From positions 35,305 through 99,304 of the forward strand of contig CAWCNW010000023.1 of NCBI GenBank assembly GCA_963796975.1: 64,000 nucleotides of DNA, in the 5' to 3' direction. Position numbers and translations under genes: made by a program. Below, in pieces: positions 3,098 through 41,393 of the stretch. This DNA comes from an uncultured Actinomycetota bacterium. GTDB lineage: Bacteria; Actinomycetota; Actinomycetes; Propionibacteriales; Nocardioidaceae. Position 1 is the stretch's first letter. Every line of letters starts with the position of its first letter. A model generated the notes under the pieces. The model saw only the letters and a list, made by a program, of their open reading frames with translations, ran no database searches and was not told where the DNA came from.

Positions 3098-4822
3098 GTG
3101 CGCGTCTCCGACGCGGTCGGGCAGGCACTGGTCCGGGCCGGCGTCGACCACGTCTTCGGCGTCGTCGGCTCCGGGAACTTCCACGTCACCAACGCGATGG
3201 TGGCCGAGGGTGCGCGGTTCGTCGCGGCCCGCCACGAGGCCGGCGCCACGACGATGGCCGACGCCTACGCCCGCGTCTCTGGCCGGGTCGCCGCGGTCAC
3301 CGTCCACCAGGGCTGCGGGTTGACGAACGCGATGACCGGGCTTGCCGAGGCCGCGAAGAGCCGGACGCCGCTGGTGGTCGTCGCGGCCGAGGCGACCGAG
3401 CCGCGGTCGAACTTCTACGTCGACCAGCCGGCGTTGGCGCGGGCGGTGGGGGCTCTCTCGTTGCGCGTGGACAGCGCCGAGGAGGCGGTCGCCCGGGCGG
3501 TAGAGGCCGTCACGCTGGCGGTGACCACGCGCCGTACCGTGCTGCTGAACCTGCCGTTGTCGGTGCAGGCGCTCGACGTGCCCGTGGTCTCGACAAGCTC
3601 GACCGACGGGGTGAGCTCGACCGACGGGGTGAGCTCGACCGACGGGGTGAGCTCGACCGACGGGGTCGGCTCGACCGGCGAGACCACGCCGGTCGAGCCT
3701 GTCGAGACCCCACCCGTCGCGCCGGACCCCGCGGACGTCGCGCGGCTGGCCGACGCCGTGCGACGCGCCGAGCGGCCGGTGTTCGTGGCGGGCCGGGGTG
3801 GACGCCCGTTCGGTGCGGACCTGCGCGAGGTGTCCGCCCGCGCCGGCGCACTGCTGGCGGAGTCGGCTGTCGCCAAGGACCTGTTCCACGACGAGGACTG
3901 GTCCCTCGGCGTCTCGGGCGGCTTCGCCTCACCGCTGGCCGCCGAGCTGATCGGCGGGGCCGACCTGATCGTGGGCTGGGGCTGTGCCCTCAACATGTGG
4001 ACGATGCGGCACGGGAAGCTGATCGCTCCCGGTGCCACCGTCGTCCAGGTCGACGACACCGCCGATGCGCTCGGTGCCCACCGCGCCCTCACCTTCGGCG
4101 TCCTCGGCGACGTAGGGCTGACCGCCCGAGCGCTCGCCGACCTGCTGCCGGACCAACGCCAGGGCTACCGCACCGACCAGGTCCGGCGCCGGCTCTCGGC
4201 CGGTCCGCTGCGCTGGCGCGACGTGCCGTACGACGACCTCGGCGGCGACGGGCTGATCGACCCGCGCACCCTCACCACGGTCCTCGACGACCTGCTCCCG
4301 CGCGAGCGGATCGTGGCGGTCGACTCGGGCAACTTCATGGGCTACCCCGCGATGTTCCTCGGCACCCCCGACGAGCAAGGCTTCTGCTTCACCCAGGCCT
4401 TCCAGTCGATCGGGCTCGGCCTCGCCACCGCCGTCGGCGCCGCCCTCGCCCGCCCCGACCGAATCCCGGTGGCCGCGCTCGGGGACGGCGGTGCGCTGAT
4501 GTCGGCCGTCGAGTTGGAGACCGTCGCGCGCCTCGGCCTGCCGATGCTCGTCGTGGTCTACGACGACCACGCGTACGGCGCCGAGGTCCATCACTTCGGG
4601 CCCGACGGCGATCCCCTCGACACCGTGGTGTTCCCCGACACCGACCTGGCCGCCATCGCCCGCGGCTACGGCTTCGAGGCGGTCGCCGTGCGCAGCGTGG
4701 CCGACCTGGCGGCGGTGGGCGATTGGCTCGACAAGGGACCCGTCGGTCCGATGCTGGTGGACGCCAAGGTCGTCGACAGCGAGCCGTCGTGGTGGCTCGA
4801 GGAGGCGTTCCGCGGCCACTGA
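3098..4822 (+). CDS. Thiamine pyrophosphate-dependent enzyme (acetolactate synthase large subunit-like) with a repeat-encoded linker insertion
   Basis: N-terminal Pyr domain (GVDHVFGVVGSGNFHV, HEAGATTMADAYARVSG), a central domain, and a C-terminal PP domain (ALGDGGALMS, VVVYDDHAYGAE). GTG start at 3098, in frame with the 2156..4822 ORF. Confidence 0.85.
   Translation: MRVSDAVGQALVRAGVDHVFGVVGSGNFHVTNAMVAEGARFVAARHEAGATTMADAYARVSGRVAAVTVHQGCGLTNAMTGLAEAAKSRTPLVVVAAEATEPRSNFYVDQPALARAVGALSLRVDSAEEAVARAVEAVTLAVTTRRTVLLNLPLSVQALDVPVVSTSSTDGVSSTDGVSSTDGVSSTDGVGSTGETTPVEPVETPPVAPDPADVARLADAVRRAERPVFVAGRGGRPFGADLREVSARAGALLAESAVAKDLFHDEDWSLGVSGGFASPLAAELIGGADLIVGWGCALNMWTMRHGKLIAPGATVVQVDDTADALGAHRALTFGVLGDVGLTARALADLLPDQRQGYRTDQVRRRLSAGPLRWRDVPYDDLGGDGLIDPRTLTTVLDDLLPRERIVAVDSGNFMGYPAMFLGTPDEQGFCFTQAFQSIGLGLATAVGAALARPDRIPVAALGDGGALMSAVELETVARLGLPMLVVVYDDHAYGAEVHHFGPDGDPLDTVVFPDTDLAAIARGYGFEAVAVRSVADLAAVGDWLDKGPVGPMLVDAKVVDSEPSWWLEEAFRGH
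3584..3709 (+). repeat. Intragenic minisatellite: about 4.5 copies of an 18-bp unit (gctcgaccgacggggtga) flanked by inverted repeats gtggtctcg / cgagaccac
   Basis: Tandem units at 3597-3614, 3615-3632, 3633-3650, 3651-3668 and a partial unit at 3669-3686. They encode (STDGVS)n. Homologous to the reverse complement of 41227-41287 and to 39780-39805. Confidence 0.85.
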
Positions 4823-4828
4823 GGTGGT

Positions 4829-5065
4829 GAGGGCACACGGTGTGCCCGTTCCCGACGGTGCTCGGAGCTCGAGGTGGAACACCCTGTGCCCGTTCCGGGT
4901 TGTCGTTCGCGGCCGTTGTGGAACAGCCTGTTCCACTACCGCTTCCGAAGGGGGCTCCTTGAGGGCACACGGCGTTCCACAACCCCCGCCGCAGGTTGCT
5001 CGTTGGGGGCACACTGCGTTCCACCAACCCCTCAGCGGGTCGTCCGTTGCGGGCACACTCTGAGC
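4829..5065. repeat. Cluster of 5-6 copies (both orientations) of a roughly 22-bp motif GGGCACAC-NN-YGTTCCAC in a 268-bp intergenic spacer
   Basis: Copies at 4831-4852, 4873-4896 (reverse), 4917-4937 (the palindrome gtggaacag-c-ctgttccac), 4963-4985 and 5007-5031, plus a partial copy at 5052-5067. Confidence 0.7.
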
Positions 5066-5090
5066 CCGGTCCGGCTGCGAGGATGACGGC

Positions 5091-6266
5091 GTGGACCTCG
5101 ACACCTTCCGCTGGCTGCTGACCGACGAGGGTCAGGCGCTGCTGGCCTCGGCGACCGCCGCCGAGGGCACACCGTTGCAGGTGCAGAAGCAGCTCCGAGC
5201 GATGGTCGCGACAGGCTCGACCGACGAAGGCGCTGCCCGGGTCGCGGCGGCACTCGGGCAGGTGGAGCTGCGGGCGCGGGCCGCGGCGAAGCTGGGCGAC
5301 GATGCCGCCCGGATGTACTTCACCCGCGACGGCCTCGAGCAGGCCACCCGCAGCTCCGTCGCCAACCACCGCGCCGCGCGCCTGGCCGTGGCCGGCCCGA
5401 GCGTGCTCGACCTGACCTGCGGCATCGGTGGCGACCTGGTCGCGTTCGCGCGGGCCGGCCTCACCACGGCCGGGATCGACCTCGACCCGCTGCGCGTCGA
5501 GATGGCGCGCGCCAACCTGGCGGCGCTCGGACTCGGGGGCGCCGTGAACGTCGCCGACGCGACCACCCTCGACGTCTCGCCGTTCGGCACGGCGTATGCC
5601 GACCCCGCGCGGCGCAGCGGCCGGGGCCGGAGCTTCCGTGCCGACGACTGGACGCCACCGTGGACCTTCGTCGCGTCGCTCCTCACCGGCCGGGCCTGCG
5701 TCAAGGTCGCGCCGGGGATCCCCCACTCCCTGGTGCCGGACGGTGCCGAGGCCGAGTGGGTCAGCGACCGCGGGGAGGTCAAGGAGGCCGCCCTGTGGTC
5801 GCCGAGGCTCGCGACCGTCGCCCGACGCGCGACCGTGATCGGGAAGGGCGGCCTCGCGACCCTGACCGACGAGGACGACCCGGGCGCGGAGGTCGGCGAC
5901 GTCGCCGAGTTCCTGTACGAGCCCGACGGCGCCGTGATCCGGGCCGGCCTGGTGACCGCCGTCGCCGCCGGGGTGAACGGCCACCTGCTGGACCGCCGGA
6001 TCGCCTACGTCACGGGCCCGGAGTCGTTCCGTTCGCCGTTCGCTCGCGGCTACCGGGTGGTGGAGCGGCTGCCGTTCCGGGAGCGCTACCTGAAGACGGC
6101 GCTGCGCGAACGCGGCATCGGCACCCTGACCATCAAGAAGCGCGGCATCGACGTCTCCCCGGAGCAGCTGAGGTCGCGGCTCGCTCTGCGCGGCGAGGAC
6201 GAGGCCACCCTGGTGCTGACCCGGGTCGCCGACGAGGGCGTGGCCCTGCTCGTGCAGCCCTTCTGA
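5091..6266 (+). CDS. Class I SAM-dependent methyltransferase with a THUMP-like C-terminal region
   Basis: 391-aa ORF with SAM-binding motif VLDLTCGIGGD. GTG start at 5091. Confidence 0.7.
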   Translation: MDLDTFRWLLTDEGQALLASATAAEGTPLQVQKQLRAMVATGSTDEGAARVAAALGQVELRARAAAKLGDDAARMYFTRDGLEQATRSSVANHRAARLAVAGPSVLDLTCGIGGDLVAFARAGLTTAGIDLDPLRVEMARANLAALGLGGAVNVADATTLDVSPFGTAYADPARRSGRGRSFRADDWTPPWTFVASLLTGRACVKVAPGIPHSLVPDGAEAEWVSDRGEVKEAALWSPRLATVARRATVIGKGGLATLTDEDDPGAEVGDVAEFLYEPDGAVIRAGLVTAVAAGVNGHLLDRRIAYVTGPESFRSPFARGYRVVERLPFRERYLKTALRERGIGTLTIKKRGIDVSPEQLRSRLALRGEDEATLVLTRVADEGVALLVQPF

Positions 6267-6267
6267 G

Positions 6268-6906
6268 CTAGAAGTCCAGCCAGGCCAGCACGGCCAGCAC
6301 CCGCCGGTTGTCGTCGGGGGCGGGCGGCAGGTCGAGCTTGGCGAAGATGTTGTTGGTGTGCTTGGCGACCGCCTTCTCGGTCACGACCAGATCGGCGGCG
6401 ATCGCGGCGTTCGAGCGACCCTCGGCCATCAGCGCCAGGACGTCGCGCTCGCGGGCCGTCAGCCTCTCGACCGGCTGCTGGCGGGCCATCACCGCCGCCA
6501 CGACCTCGGGGTCCAGCACGGTGCCGCCCCCGGCCACCCGCCGCAGCGCATCGACGAACTCGCGGACGTCGCCCACCCGTTCCTTGAGCAGGTAGCCGAC
6601 GCCGCCCTGGCCGTCGGCGAGCAGCTCGCGGGCGTAGATGCGCTCGACGTACTGCGAGAGCACGAGCACGGGGAAGCCCGGCCGCCGGTGGCGTACGTCG
6701 ACCGCGGCACGCAGGCCCTCGTCGGTGCCGGTCGGCGGCAGGCGTACGTCGAGCAGCGCGACGTCCGCGGTGTCGGGGTCGGCCAGGGCGGCCGCCAGCG
6801 AGTCGGCGTCCTCGGCCGCCGCGACGACCTCGAAGTCGTTCGACTCGAGCAGCCGGATCAGGCCTTCCCGGAGGAGGGTCTGGTCCTCGGCGAGGACGAC
6901 GCGCAC
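6268..6906 (-). CDS. LuxR/NarL-family response regulator
   Basis: Receiver domain (VRVVLAEDQTLLREGL, DVALLDVRLPP) plus LuxR HTH (LTARERDVLALMAEGRSNAAIA). GTG start at 6906. Confidence 0.9.
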   Translation of the reverse strand: MRVVLAEDQTLLREGLIRLLESNDFEVVAAAEDADSLAAALADPDTADVALLDVRLPPTGTDEGLRAAVDVRHRRPGFPVLVLSQYVERIYARELLADGQGGVGYLLKERVGDVREFVDALRRVAGGGTVLDPEVVAAVMARQQPVERLTARERDVLALMAEGRSNAAIAADLVVTEKAVAKHTNNIFAKLDLPPAPDDNRRVLAVLAWLDF

Positions 6907-20403: not shown

Positions 20404-21677
20404 ACGACGACGACCTCACCACCGACCTGGGCCGCGAGCTGCGCGACCACGCAGACGCCATGCACGGCTCCTCGCTCGGCCTGGCCGACGTGCAGCGCAA
20501 GGCACGCTCGATCCGGCGCCGGCGTACGGCGATCGCCGTGGGCGGCGCGGTCGCAGCTGTGGCGCTCATCGTGCCGACGGCGGCCCTGGCGAACCACCAC
20601 GGCCACGCCACCGAGCCGCTGCCCGCGACGCAGAGCGTCACCCCCACGCCCAGCCCCACCCCCGGGTCGACGGACGGGGAGCAGCCGGCACGCGGCGTGC
20701 TCGACGTGTCCGGCCTGCCCAGCGGACCCGCGCCGCAGATGGACTACGTCCAGGACGGCGTGTTCCACACCGCCGACGGTGACACCTTCGAGGTGGGCAC
20801 CCGCTACCCGCCCGACCGGCTCGTGCAGCTGGCGGACGGGGCGAAGGTCTGGCAGACGACGGGCAAGAACGGCGTCGGGTACATCGAGATCCAGGACGTC
20901 GACGGCACCTTCCACGACCCGGTCCGCAGTGGCGCCGGCCTGAGCGTGAACAGGGCGCACAGCATCGTGGCCTGGTTGACCCCTGAGGGCCAGGTGACCA
21001 TCTGGGAGGGCTGGGCCAGCGACCCCAGGCCGCTGGGCGACCCCGTCCCCGGTGACGATCTGCGGCTGGGGCCGATCACCGGGAGCGCCGATGTCGTGCC
21101 GGGACAGACGGGCCCGAGCTGCCAGCAGTCGAGCTGCACCGTTCTGGTCAACGCCCGTGACGGCGAGAGCCAGCAGCCCTGGGAGGTCAGCGAGGCCGGG
21201 TCGCAGCCACTGCTCGACGGCGGCTACCTGAGCGTCAGCGACGTGAGCGATGCCGGCCTGTCGGTCGGCCTGACCAAGATCACGGACTTCGGCTCCTGCT
21301 CGACGCTCCTCGGCGGGGGCGAGTTCCAGGGCTTCAAGACCTGCAAGCACACCCTCGTGTCGTTCTCGCCCGACGAGCAGCTCCTGCTCGCCGACCCGGC
21401 GTACCACGACGGCATCGGCAACGGCGTGATCGCGATGTACGACCTGTCGGGCAAGCGGCTCTTCGAGCGGCACAGCACCGAGGACGCCCAGTCCTTCTAC
21501 CCGGAGGCGACGTGGGAGGACGACACCCACGTCCTCGTGCCGGTGTTCCAGGACGGGACGTGGTCGCTCGTGCGCGTGGCGTCGGACGGGGCCATGGAGT
21601 ACGCCGTGCCGCCGGCCCCGGGCGACGAGTTCGAGAACCCGTTCGTGCTGCCCACCGGCGGCGGCCTCACGAGCTGA
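20400..21677 (+). CDS. Membrane-anchored extracytoplasmic protein translationally coupled to sigma factor 2 (putative sensor / anti-sigma-like)
   Basis: ATGA overlap with the sigma gene. One TM helix ([22 protein letters not shown]). C-terminal block [36 protein letters not shown]. Confidence 0.75.
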
Positions 21678-21680
21678 GGG

Positions 21681-22734
21681 CTACGCGACCACCTCGGTGA
21701 TCGGCTGGGAGGAGTCGGCCGGCAGGTCGAGGGACGACGGGGTACGGCCGCGGGCAACCAGCTCGGCGCCGAGCGCGGCCACCATCGCGCCGTTGTCGGT
21801 GCACAGCCCGGGCCGGGGTACGCGGACCCGGACCCCTCGGGCCTCCGCTCGCTCGGTCGCCATCGCCCGGAGCCGGGTGTTCGCCGCGACGCCGCCGCCG
21901 ATCAGGAGGTCCTCGATCCCCTGGTCGTCCGGCGGCGTCGAGTGCCTTGCGGACCAGGACGTCGCAGACGGCCTCCTGGAAGCTGGCCGCGACGTCGGCG
22001 ACGTCGATGGTGACGCCGTCGCGCTGCTGGGTCTCGACCCAGCGGGCGACGGCCGTCTTGAGACCGGAGAACGAGAAGTCGAACCGGTGCCGCTCGAGGT
22101 CGCGCCGACTGGTGAGGCCGCGCGGGAAGTCGATGGTGACCTGGCCGTCGCGGGCGGCGCGGTCGATGTAGGGGCCACCGGGGAAGGGCAGGCCGAGCAG
22201 CCGGGCGACCTTGTCGAAGGCCTCACCGGCCGCGTCGTCGATCGTCGCGCCCAGCGGCACGACTCCCCCGCCGTGACCGGTGACGTCCTCGACCCGCAGC
22301 AGGCTGGAGTGGCCGCCGCTGACGAGCATCGCCAGGCAGGGCTCGGGCAGCGGGCCGTGCTCGAGCTGGTCGACGGCGACGTGGGAGGCCAGGTGGTTGA
22401 CGCCGTAGATCGGCTTGCCGAGCCCGATCGCCAGCGCCTTGGCCGCGGCGACGCCGACCAGCAGCGCACCGGCCAGTCCCGGTCCGCTGGTGACCGCGAT
22501 CGCGTCGACGTCGTGGAGGCTGATGCCCGAGATCTCGCAGGCGCGCTCGATGGTGGGCACCATCGCCTCGAGGTGGGCCCTGCTCGCGACCTCGGGTACG
22601 ACGCCACCGAAGCGGGCGTGCTCCTCGACGCTGCTCGCGACCGCGTCGGCGAGCAGGGTGTGGCCCCGGACGATGCCGACGCCGGTCTCGTCGCAGGAGG
22701 TCTCGATGCCGAGGACCAGGGGCTCGTCGGTCAC
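21681..22734 (-). CDS. tsaD: tRNA N6-adenosine threonylcarbamoyltransferase TsaD, interrupted by an apparent 1-nt frameshift near 21918-21921
   Basis: The N-terminal 270 aa ([25 protein letters not shown]) are in one frame. The conserved C-terminus [18 protein letters not shown]...[10 protein letters not shown] is in the +1 frame (ORF 21681..22607). Confidence 0.9.
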
Positions 22735-23225
22735 GTCAGCTCCTTGAGGAGGATCACCGCGGTGGTGCCGTCGGCGTAGTAGCGCGGCCGCCGGTCGATC
22801 TCCCGGAAGCCACGCGCCGCGTAGAAGGCGCAGGCCACGTGGTTGTCCTCGCGCACCTCGAGCAGCAGCTGGTCGGCGTGACGGGTCAGCGCCTCCTGCT
22901 CCACGCGGGCGAGCAGGTCGGAGGCCAGACCGGTACGGCGATGGGGCTCCGCCACTGCGATCCGCTGGAGCTCGGCGAGGTCGGCGACGATGCTGACGGC
23001 CGCGTAGGCGACGAGCGTGGTCTCGACATGCTCGACCGACGGGCCGGGCTCGACCGACGAGGCGGTCGCGACCAGGTAGAGCGTGGTCGGCACCCGGCCC
23101 GAGACCCCCTCGGTGACCAGGCCGTGGGACCAGGCGTCGGAGCCGAGGGCGTCGTGCTCCAGGGCCGCGACGGCGTCGGCGTCGTCGGGGCCGGCGAGTC
23201 GGACCTCGACGTCGGTCACGCTCAC
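22731..23225 (-). CDS. rimI: Ribosomal-protein-alanine N-acetyltransferase RimI (GNAT)
   Basis: 164-aa GNAT ([17 protein letters not shown]) between tsaB and tsaD, with 4-nt overlaps on both sides. Confidence 0.85.
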
Positions 23226-34699: not shown

Positions 34700-35659
34700 A
34701 TGTCCAACGGCGTGCAGGGGAGCGAGCCGTCCCCGTACGTCGAGCTGGACCGCGACGCCTGGGCCGAGCTGGGCGAGCACTTCCACCAGCCGCTGTCGGG
34801 CGAGGAGATCACCCGGCTGCGGGGGCTGGGCGACCAGCTCGACCTCCGAGAGGTGCAGCAGGTCTACCTCCCGCTCTCGCGGCTGCTGAGCCTGCGGGTC
34901 AAGGCCGCGCGTCGCCTGCACCGCAAGCAGGAGGAGTTCCTGCACCGGCCGCAGCCGCCGCGCACGCCATTCGTGATCGGACTCGCCGGCTCGGTCGCGG
35001 TGGGCAAGTCGACGACGGCGCGGGTTCTCCAGCAGATGCTGGCCCACTGGGACGAGCACCCGAACGTCGCGCTGGTGACCACCGACGGCTTCCTCTACCC
35101 CAACGCCGAGCTCGAGCGGCGAGGACTCCTGCAGCGCAAGGGCTTCCCGGAGTCCTACGACCGGCGCGCGCTGCTGCGCTTCGTCGTCGACATCAAGTCG
35201 GGCAGGGACGAGGTCGAGGCGCCGACCTACTCCCACCTCGTGTACGACGTGGTGCGCGACGACCCGATCGTCGTCCGGCACCCCGACATCGTGATCATCG
35301 AGGGTCTCAACGTCCTCCAGCCGGCCCGCCGTACCGAGGACGGCCGCAGCGGCCTGGCGCTGAGCGACTTCTTCGACTTCAGCGTCTTCGTCGACGCCGC
35401 CACCGACGACATCCGCGCGTGGTACGTCGAGCGGTTCCTGCGGCTGCGCAAGACCGCCTTCGCCGACCCCGCGTCGTACTTCTCGCGCTACGCCAACCTG
35501 TCCTCCGAGGAGGCGACCGCGACCGCCGAGGAGATCTGGGGCAGCATCAACGGCCCCAACCTCGAGCAGAACATCAAGCCCACCCGCTCGCGCGCCACAC
35601 TGGTCCTGCGCAAGGATCGTGATCATTCGGTGCGGTACGTGAGGTTGCGGAAGCTGTAG
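34700..35659 (+). CDS. coaA: Type I pantothenate kinase
   Basis: P-loop [18 protein letters not shown], and blocks TTDGFLYPN and [10 protein letters not shown]-terminal [16 protein letters not shown]. Confidence 0.93.
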
Positions 35660-39779: not shown

Positions 39780-39805
39780 CTGGTCTCGACAGGCTCGACC
39801 ATCGG
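39780..39805 (+). repeat. Solo partial copy of the GGTCTCGACAGGCTCGACC element in the rplM / citrate synthase divergent spacer
   Basis: tggtctcgacaggctcgacc matches the reverse complement of 41268-41287 and, with one mismatch, 3585-3604. Confidence 0.5.
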
Positions 39806-41226: not shown

Positions 41227-41324
41227 CCGTCGGCCGAGCTGGGTCCGTCGGTCGAGCTGGTCCGTCGGTCGAGCCTGTCGAGACCACGGTGCCGAGGCAG
41301 TAGGCACCGTCACCGGGTCTCGAC
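41227..41324. repeat. Intergenic minisatellite (3 copies of a 17-18-bp unit, ccgtcggtcgagc...) joined to a nested hairpin; probable bidirectional terminator
   Basis: Units at 41227-41244, 41245-41261 and 41262-41278. Outer arms gtcgagacc (41277-85) / ggtctcgac (41316-24). Inner arms acggtgcc / ggcaccgt. Located between convergent genes. Confidence 0.75.
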
Positions 41325-41393
41325 CCGCGGTCACGCCCTCGCGAGCTCGGTCGTGCGCTCGCTCGACCTTCCGCCCGTGCGGGCTTCGCAAGC

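Follow-up and report, generated by a model that had tools for sequence, protein, structure and literature searches.

The window analysed here is a 64-kb stretch (64,000 nucleotides; positions 35,305 to 99,304 of contig CAWCNW010000023.1, GenBank assembly GCA_963796975.1) from an uncultured actinobacterium of the Nocardioidaceae. At 3098..4822 on its plus strand lies a gene for a thiamine pyrophosphate (TPP)-dependent enzyme of the acetolactate-synthase-like superfamily (574 amino acids, GTG start), which contains, in frame, a repeat-bearing insert at 3584-3709 corresponding to residues ~163-204. Pfam assigns TPP_enzyme_N to residues 1-105 of the protein, TPP_enzyme_M to 214-346 and TPP_enzyme_C to 409-540, the insert being located between the first and middle domains. 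The NCBIfam acetolactate-synthase-like profiles match the protein in two stretches that leave out residues ~161-194. Read in the gene frame, the whole insert translates as VVSTSSTDGVSSTDGVSSTDGVSSTDGVGSTGETTPVEPVET.

On its left side the insert has a 24-nt module (GGTCTCGACAAGCTCGACCGACGG, 3586..3609, plus strand) that encodes VSTSSTDG and fits the position matrix of the repeat family described below. The module runs into a tandem array of the half-module unit (A)GCTCGACCGACGGGGTG (3596..3677, plus strand; Tandem Repeats Finder: period 18, 4.6 copies, 96% matches, 0 indels), at the end of which a degenerate additional unit extends to ~3687. The array is in frame within 3098..4822 and translates as VVSTSSTDGVSSTDGVSSTDGVSSTDGVGSTGETT. 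A second module, inverted with respect to the first (GGTCTCGACAGGCTCGACCGGCGT on the minus strand, 3686..3709), encodes PVEPVET in the gene frame. Together the two modules close a 124-nt stem-loop, and the predicted RNA fold of 3575-3720, closed by these same modules, reaches -90.9 kcal/mol (z -4.83). An earlier, sequence-only reading of this DNA had described the 18-bp in-frame array, a 9-bp inverted repeat formed by gtggtctcg (3584-3592) and cgagaccac (3679..3687, plus strand, by direct reading of the sequence), and the 19-mer ggtcgagcctgtcgagacc at 3691-3709, which recurs at 41267-41285. All of these are present as described. More telling than the 9-bp pair, however, is the inverted repeat that the 19-mers at 3586-3604 and 3691-3709 form, with 18/19 positions matching.

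The ratio of nonsynonymous to synonymous substitution rates (dN/dS) of the TPP gene is 0.14-0.18 in comparisons with three orthologues and, judged from these values, the gene is under purifying selection. An AlphaFold2 model of the enzyme, built on 77 sequences, has a mean predicted local distance difference test score (pLDDT) of 86.5 and a predicted template modelling score of 0.88. In this model residues 158-210 are without secondary structure, and successive 10-residue blocks over 161-200 have pLDDT values of 74, 56, 51 and 71. Because this low-confidence coil lies between well-folded domains, the insert is predicted to be a disordered extension of the inter-domain linker.

A dispersed family of 24-nt modules

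The module of the TPP gene is not confined to that gene. Allowing up to three mismatches, the 19-mer GGTCTCGACAGGCTCGACC is present at six places in the window, where shuffles give an expectation of 0.17 and 0/100 of them reached six, and GCTCGACCGACGG with at most one mismatch occurs 12 times against 1.35 expected. The similarity that the sequence-only reading had seen between the insert and an intergenic element is therefore beyond chance, although 3584-3650, judged by eye to be ~85% identical with 41227-41287 in reverse complement, matches it at only 78% (52/67 columns). Two of the 19-mer copies are the left (3586, plus strand) and right (3709-3691, minus strand) members of the inverted pair in the TPP gene. 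Copies at 5204, 23019 and 39782 add to those noticed before, so that three genes of the window (those for the TPP enzyme and a THUMP-like methyltransferase, and rimI) carry modules and two further modules flank the citrate synthase gene. In the methyltransferase gene (5091..6266, assigned by Pfam) the module GGTCGCGACAGGCTCGACCGACGA (5204..5227, plus strand) is read in the same codon phase as the forward TPP copy and encodes VATGSTDE. In rimI (22731..23225, minus strand) a module with one unit lies at 23019..23060 on the plus strand, the gene reading the reverse strand of the module. A lone intergenic 24-mer (GGTCTCGACAGGCTCGACCATCGG, 39782..39805, plus strand) is situated between the divergent rplM and citrate synthase genes, upstream of the latter. 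Downstream of citrate synthase, between convergent genes and beginning 8 nt past the citrate synthase stop codon, an intergenic module (41262-41285) is followed by 2.7 units of 17-18 bp (together 41227..41285, minus strand). A partial inverted partner of this module (gggtctcgaccc, 41315..41326, plus strand) can base-pair with 41277-41285, thereby enclosing a further small hairpin; this helix appears in the fold of the downstream element, the overall z of which is only -1.6. The three arrays of the window (TPP, rimI and downstream of citrate synthase) share the same architecture of a module followed by half-units. The citrate synthase gene is thus bracketed by modules in inverted orientation (39782-39805 and 41262-41285) ~1.5 kb apart, the upstream one being in the divergent promoter region common to rplM.

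To follow the module beyond the window, one genome per species was scanned with the exact pattern GGTCTCGACANGCTCGACC, which was found in at least 118 genome stretches. Among the matches listed, nearly all belong by their record titles to Propionibacteriales (Nocardioides, Marmoricola, Micropruina, Propionicimonas) or Micrococcales (Cryobacterium, Leifsonia, Arthrobacter, Promicromonospora, Isoptericola). The few outliers comprise metagenome-assembled genomes that carry the labels of other phyla, along with two Rhodobacteraceae isolates (Roseovarius and Antarctobacter); they could be mis-binned contigs or chance single hits. A phage origin was considered and rejected, as only 5 matches were found in 2.9 million viral contigs.

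A position matrix from 182 copies defines the conserved module as the 24-mer GGTCTCGACA[A/G]GCTCGACC[A/G]NCG[G/A], with sharp edges: information drops to background directly outside positions 1 and 24. Within the 19-mer core, the only complementary positions are 1-4 and 16-19, which leaves a centre of 11 nt. When the outer four bases on each side were relaxed and the centre TCGACA-N-GCTC kept, the two ends were perfect complements of each other in 36/75 non-canonical copies, where independent ends would give 7.3. The complementary pairs include GATC/GATC (15), GGTT/AACC (8), CATC/GATG (6) and GATT/AATC (5). The family thus comprises several subfamilies, in which a 4-bp stem or dyad co-varies on either side of the 11-nt centre, and at least five stem subfamilies coexist within the same genomes. 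Modules occur 1) alone; 2) frequently, as inverted pairs 6-40 nt apart, often mixing two subfamilies; or 3) followed by tandem half-units, each made of GCTCGACC, a 5-nt tail and a spacer of 1-11 nt, with start-to-start spacings of GCTCGACC of 14-24 nt. A composite, MITE-like form (MITE: miniature inverted-repeat transposable element) of the same family is found at 4155-4401 of locus L015 from Cryobacterium arcticum, where two tandem units of ~100 nt each have inverted 24-mers bounding a shared 50-nt core. At 4245-6879 of locus L029 (Nocardioides sp. NPDC006303), seven exact modules and their CATC-subfamily partners lie within 2.6 kb of apparently non-coding DNA, interleaved with the parS-like palindromes GTTTCACGTGGAACA and GTTTCACGTGAAACA. 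A DasR-/GntR-type operator, considered on account of the string TGGTCT...GACCA, was rejected as an identity for the module, because its spacing is not that of the module, whose half-sites also co-vary among five or more subfamilies.

Copies were sorted with a crude classifier of our own making, which looks in both flanks for a stop-free frame and for a contrast in G+C content between third and second codon positions; it placed 153/183 copies in non-coding DNA or at gene edges and 30 in coding sequence. At the level of clusters, 45 lie between co-directional genes, 16 between convergent and 9 between divergent genes, 15 are intragenic and 47 undetermined, and with respect to transcription neither orientation is preferred (27 vs 30). 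Most coding copies (25/30) use just two of the six frames, the forward frame G|GTC|TCG|ACA|AGC|TCG|ACC, giving VSTSST, and the reverse frame G|GTC|GAG|C[C/T]T|GTC|GAG|ACC, giving VE(P/L)VET. For arrays following a core module we also determined how far apart successive GCTCGACC motifs lie. In coding arrays 25/25 unit spacings are multiples of 3 (21 of them being 18), whereas in non-coding arrays 30/76 are, near the one-third expected by chance. The sequence-only reading had contrasted units of exactly 18 bp in the gene with units of 17-18 bp in the intergenic copies, and these counts extend that contrast to the family at large. It would appear that the coding copies encode benign hydrophilic peptides, VSTSSTDG or SVEPVET, in tolerant loops.

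Gain, loss and resizing at orthologous sites

Most of the best 120 homologues of the TPP enzyme are 542-550 amino acids long against 574 in the window, a difference due wholly to the linker, which is hypervariable and flanked by the conserved motifs LNLPL.VQA and D(V/L).RLA.AV. Orthologue alignment, which the sequence-only reading had proposed as a check, thus finds most orthologues ~30 residues shorter, and one close orthologue, L120, without any insert. At the DNA level we compared syntenic orthologues, in which the gene order groES-groEL, cyclase, TPP enzyme, methyltransferase is kept. The element is missing from L120; L119 carries a degenerate module with one unit, and L121 and L122 a decayed module; the right-hand inverted copy is absent from all four. 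The number of units in the linker is accordingly 0, ~1-2 or 4.6 depending on the species. Peptides of the 24-mer family are found in 24/121 TPP linkers (14 in forward orientation only, 1 in reverse only and 9 in both). A further 20/121 linkers carry a different in-frame insert of ~100 nt (family B) with nested palindromes CGAAGTGGGACTTCTCC...GGGAGAACTCCC...GGAAAGTCCCACTTCG, translated as RSGTSP...GE(V/L)PPRPR...SPTSA; examples, from other Nocardioides, are L127 (8420-8520), L128 and L130 (8440-8535). Within the compared loci no copies of family B were found elsewhere that would make it a dispersed repeat.

The two other genes with modules also differ from their orthologues. The methyltransferase gene has a clean in-frame insertion of 21 nt, or seven codons (MVATGST), that is absent from the syntenic L119, L120 and L121. 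Both protein and DNA alignments of rimI show a loop after TTLYLVAT that is without units in L139 and has one unit in L138, two in the window and three in L140. Over the syntenic 20 kb, ten relatives have between them one degenerate copy only (in L119), compared with three copies in the first 12 kb of the window.

The nearest genome found (ERZ25039606 contig_11104; L123 and L132) shares 99.6-99.75% identity with the window across 19 kb; the differences are mainly substitutions, and the in-frame array is identical. Probes for the array junction and for two units gave 0 matches in the metagenomes of the Joint Genome Institute. Some differences between the window and L123 are clustered, with 4 within 22 nt (3712-3733) just to the right of the TPP insert and 6 within 18 nt (5526-5543) of the methyltransferase gene, and from their spacing they look like short conversion tracts.

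Two other features of the window may be recorded here. The intergenic region between the TPP and methyltransferase genes (4823-5090) contains another motif, GGGCACAC-N3-5-GTTCCAC, in five or six copies, of which some form palindromic pairs (gtggaacagcctgttccac); L120 has TGTGGAACACCTTGTTCCACA at the same place, and Tandem Repeats Finder reports a 44-bp repeat at 4954-5058. On the minus strand, tsaD is split over two open reading frames (ORFs; 21667..22734 and 21681..22607), each with part of the protein, a frameshift or an indel error that suggests a long-read metagenome assembly.

Origin of the insert

The explanation we favour, with a probability of roughly 0.7, is that 3584-3709 derives from a small dispersed repeat of Actinomycetota, similar in kind to repetitive extragenic palindromic (REP) elements of other bacteria, sitting in frame in the disordered linker that joins the first domain of a functional TPP enzyme to its middle domain. 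The insert more likely represents two adjacent copies than one. As the sequence-only reading had proposed, a non-coding, structure-forming family seems to have been taken into the enzyme linker without loss of frame, since the module is intergenic in both orientations and L120 is without the element. Nor is the peptide conserved over unrelated DNA: the DNA is common to the intergenic copies, and reverse copies encode VEPVET.

The element would spread as non-autonomous DNA, either by way of an enzyme that recognises it or through ectopic recombination. Within genes, the surviving insertions would be those that keep the frame, encode harmless hydrophilic peptides and hit tolerant loops. Arrays of half-units could then grow by slippage between the 13-nt GCTCGACCGACGG repeats, the period in the TPP gene being fixed at 18 bp by selection on the frame. 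The ancestor common to L119, P0003 and L121 probably had a forward copy in its linker already, with the expansion of the array and the inverted right-hand copy arising in the window's own lineage. For the enzyme the result would be ~31 extra residues of flexible linker, probably a near-neutral change.

Several observations weigh against this explanation. There is no clean target-site duplication at the TPP insert (CCCGT is found directly beside the left end and again 3 nt past the right end). The right-hand copy takes the place of an ancestral segment encoding PVARVTAPEG in L120 and PVARVTAPDG in P0002, and because it replaces sequence instead of adding to it, conversion or templated repair fits as well as transposition. 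Clustering of 820 ORFs from 118 repeat loci did not reveal any family enriched near the repeats that could be a mobilising gene, the clusters found being common families such as ABC transporters and LuxR-type regulators. A single 24-mer does not form a stable hairpin (DNA folds of 0 to -2.8 kcal/mol, z ~0); because the lone module folds so unstably, the co-variation of its ends may reflect dyad-symmetric recognition of the duplex by a protein and not a hairpin, or else a hairpin that a protein stabilises. The sequence-only reading had also put the array forward as a candidate variable-number tandem repeat (VNTR). Unit numbers do vary between species, in rimI (0-3) and in the TPP linker, but the window and its one 99.6%-identical relative both have 4.6 units. 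Finally, the classifier behind the coding and non-coding counts is crude enough to have left the TPP cluster itself, along with the 47 undetermined clusters, unclassified.

A bolder version of the favoured explanation, which we put forward only tentatively, postulates a vertically inherited enzyme or binding protein, functionally analogous to the REP-associated tyrosine transposases (RAYTs), that recognises the 24-mer and has kept its sequence and the co-varying stem subfamilies across Propionibacteriales and Micrococcales. The elements would then still be active, repeatedly seeding and resizing the loops and inter-domain linkers of ordinary enzymes.

The first alternative, a serious one, dispenses with transposition altogether. 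Ectopic gene conversion or template switching would have copied the sequence into partly similar sites (rich in CTCGAC/GTCGAC and in G+C), with arrays and inverted partners as by-products of repair. Such a process would account for the replacement of ancestral sequence of similar length by the right-hand TPP copy, and for the mismatch GTCGCGAC of the methyltransferase copy, which resembles the empty site GACGCGACC of the orthologues; it also agrees with the lack of any transposase associated with the repeats in the 118 loci and of a visible target duplication. We nevertheless consider it unlikely, as the sharp edges of the 24-mer over 182 copies and the clean 21-nt insertion in the methyltransferase gene look like the movement of a discrete unit, and conversion alone leaves the co-varying stem subfamilies unexplained.

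It is also conceivable that the 24-mer is primarily the binding site of a conserved actinobacterial DNA- or RNA-binding protein, acting in nucleoid organisation, at transcript ends or in mRNA stability, with coding copies being incidental. Selfish repeats are not usually conserved as an exact 19-mer across two orders, the outer four bases co-vary even though one module alone does not make a stable hairpin, copies are scarcer in divergent promoter regions (9 vs 45 co-directional and 16 convergent), and one copy lies right after the citrate synthase stop codon in a predicted helix. Against a binding site stand the even orientation relative to transcription (27 vs 30), the coexistence of at least five stem subfamilies in the same genomes, the variable presence at orthologous sites and the tolerance of elements in three unrelated genes. 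Rfam gives no match at gathering thresholds over the whole window, and permissive scans of both elements returned only weak chance matches to miRNA, snoRNA and VA models. On balance this role seems quite improbable as the primary one.

Selection at the protein level for repeats of Ser, Thr, Asp and Gly (as a phosphorylation or glycosylation site, or as a tuned spacer), with the likeness in DNA being secondary, is very improbable. The same DNA is mostly non-coding, reverse copies encode an unrelated peptide, the region is predicted to be disordered, and both sequence and length of the linker are hypervariable among orthologues; these facts outweigh the preference of coding copies for two frames that give hydrophilic peptides and the presence of repeat-derived peptides in the linkers of 44/121 (~36%) TPP sequences. 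An ordinary minisatellite grown from native linker codons, resembling the intergenic element by chance at 72% G+C, can hardly be credited in spite of the abundance of CTCGAC/GTCGAC strings (GCTCGACC alone occurs 47 times in the window), given the excess of the 19-mer over expectation and shuffles, the exact copies in both orientations, the absence of the element from L120 and the presence of the module in many genera. The chance that the array is an artefact of long-read metagenome assembly is negligible: the split of tsaD (21667..22734) between two frames is a sign of indel errors, but the identical in-frame array is present in the 99.6%-identical ERZ25039606 contig_11104 and related elements are found in isolate genomes.

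Relation to known repeats and significance

A small dispersed repeat inserted in frame has close parallels in the Rickettsia palindromic elements (RPEs), which are found between genes as well as in frame inside apparently functional genes, where they add a surface peptide segment (PMC3733652). The likeness lies in the in-frame insertion into genes under selection, since three genes of the window carry 24-mer copies and the TPP gene has a dN/dS of 0.14-0.18. RPEs are, however, longer than the 24-mer, are found in Rickettsia and have no sequence in common with it. Two of them, RPE-4 and RPE-6, have been assigned to the CGTC-tagged REPs, with stems of 8-9 bp (PMC3733652), whereas the 24-mer has a 4-bp complementary stem, is often followed by tandem half-units and occurs in Actinomycetota.

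REPs, and the REPIN elements formed from them, offer the most extensive likeness. The 24-mers are high-copy short repeats, found mostly between co-directional or convergent genes (153/183 copies non-coding, by our classifier), either single or arranged as inverted dimers, which are often heterodimeric, with two stem variants; now and then a copy lies in frame inside a gene and is absent from shorter orthologues. REPs inside ORFs are likewise absent from shorter orthologues, and REP dimers of differing stem variants are known (Di Nocera et al. 2013, PMC3733652). Against this, the position matrix of 182 copies contains no GTAG, the 3' tail of the 24-mer being [A/G]NCG[G/A], and the 4-bp stem around an 11-nt centre, without a stable hairpin, contrasts with REP stems of 5-13 bp. 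GTAG-tagged REPs and REPINs are mobilised by RAYTs, which are Y1 transposases similar to those of IS200/IS605. No RAYT gene was found near the copies among the 820 ORFs from 118 loci. Comparison with the CGTC-tagged REPs is closer in one respect, the tail GACGG of the window subfamily reading CCGTC beside the stem; family-wide only YCGNY is kept. CGTC-tagged REPs have a stem of 8-9 bp with A/T in the first two positions, a loop of 4-5 nt and a CCA tail (PMC3733652), unlike the 4-bp stem of the 24-mer, which begins with GG or GA, has an 11-nt centre and lacks the CCA tail. Neither the GTAG- nor the CGTC-tagged super-family was reported from Actinobacteria in that survey (PMC3733652).

The TPP copy (3586-3709) resembles MITEs such as Correia/NEMIS, Nezha and ERIC in being 124 nt long with 24-nt inverted termini and a long stem-loop, and some loci, L015 for example, have units of ~100 nt with the same termini. 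It differs from them in having neither a clean target-site duplication nor a related insertion sequence; the termini alone are the commonest form of the family, and in the TPP copy one end appears to be older than the other. Mycobacterial interspersed repetitive units (MIRUs) are 46-101 bp long and located in intergenic parts of operons. The arrays resemble MIRU-VNTRs as actinobacterial tandem repeats whose unit number differs between lineages, but their units are half-modules of 14-24 bp attached to a dispersed 24-mer and can lie in coding sequence, and the variation seen in them is between species. Literature searches by DNA sequence and on REP/RAYT elements and Actinobacteria did not yield any description of the 24-mer. 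Because it behaves like REPs and RPEs and yet lacks their defining features, we class it as what appears to be a previously undescribed family of a known kind of element.

Short repeats scattered mostly between genes are thus shown to remodel protein loops in Actinomycetota as well. The phenomenon itself is not new in principle. The entry of small palindromic repeats into genes in frame is documented for Rickettsia and some Proteobacteria, but to our knowledge not for Actinomycetota. What sets the 24-mer family apart is its unusually wide conservation and structured co-variation, and it has colonised one enzyme linker repeatedly and in both orientations. In practical terms, copies inflate or split gene calls and yield spurious "VSTSST" or "VEPVET" peptides, and the hypervariable linkers that they create disturb orthologue alignments. 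If the census holds, the family provides a defined and widely shared element with which to ask how repeats move without an obvious transposase, why such a sequence persists across orders, and how often linkers arise and lengthen. Should the postulated recognition factor prove real, these elements would regularly give rise to differences in protein length among these bacteria.

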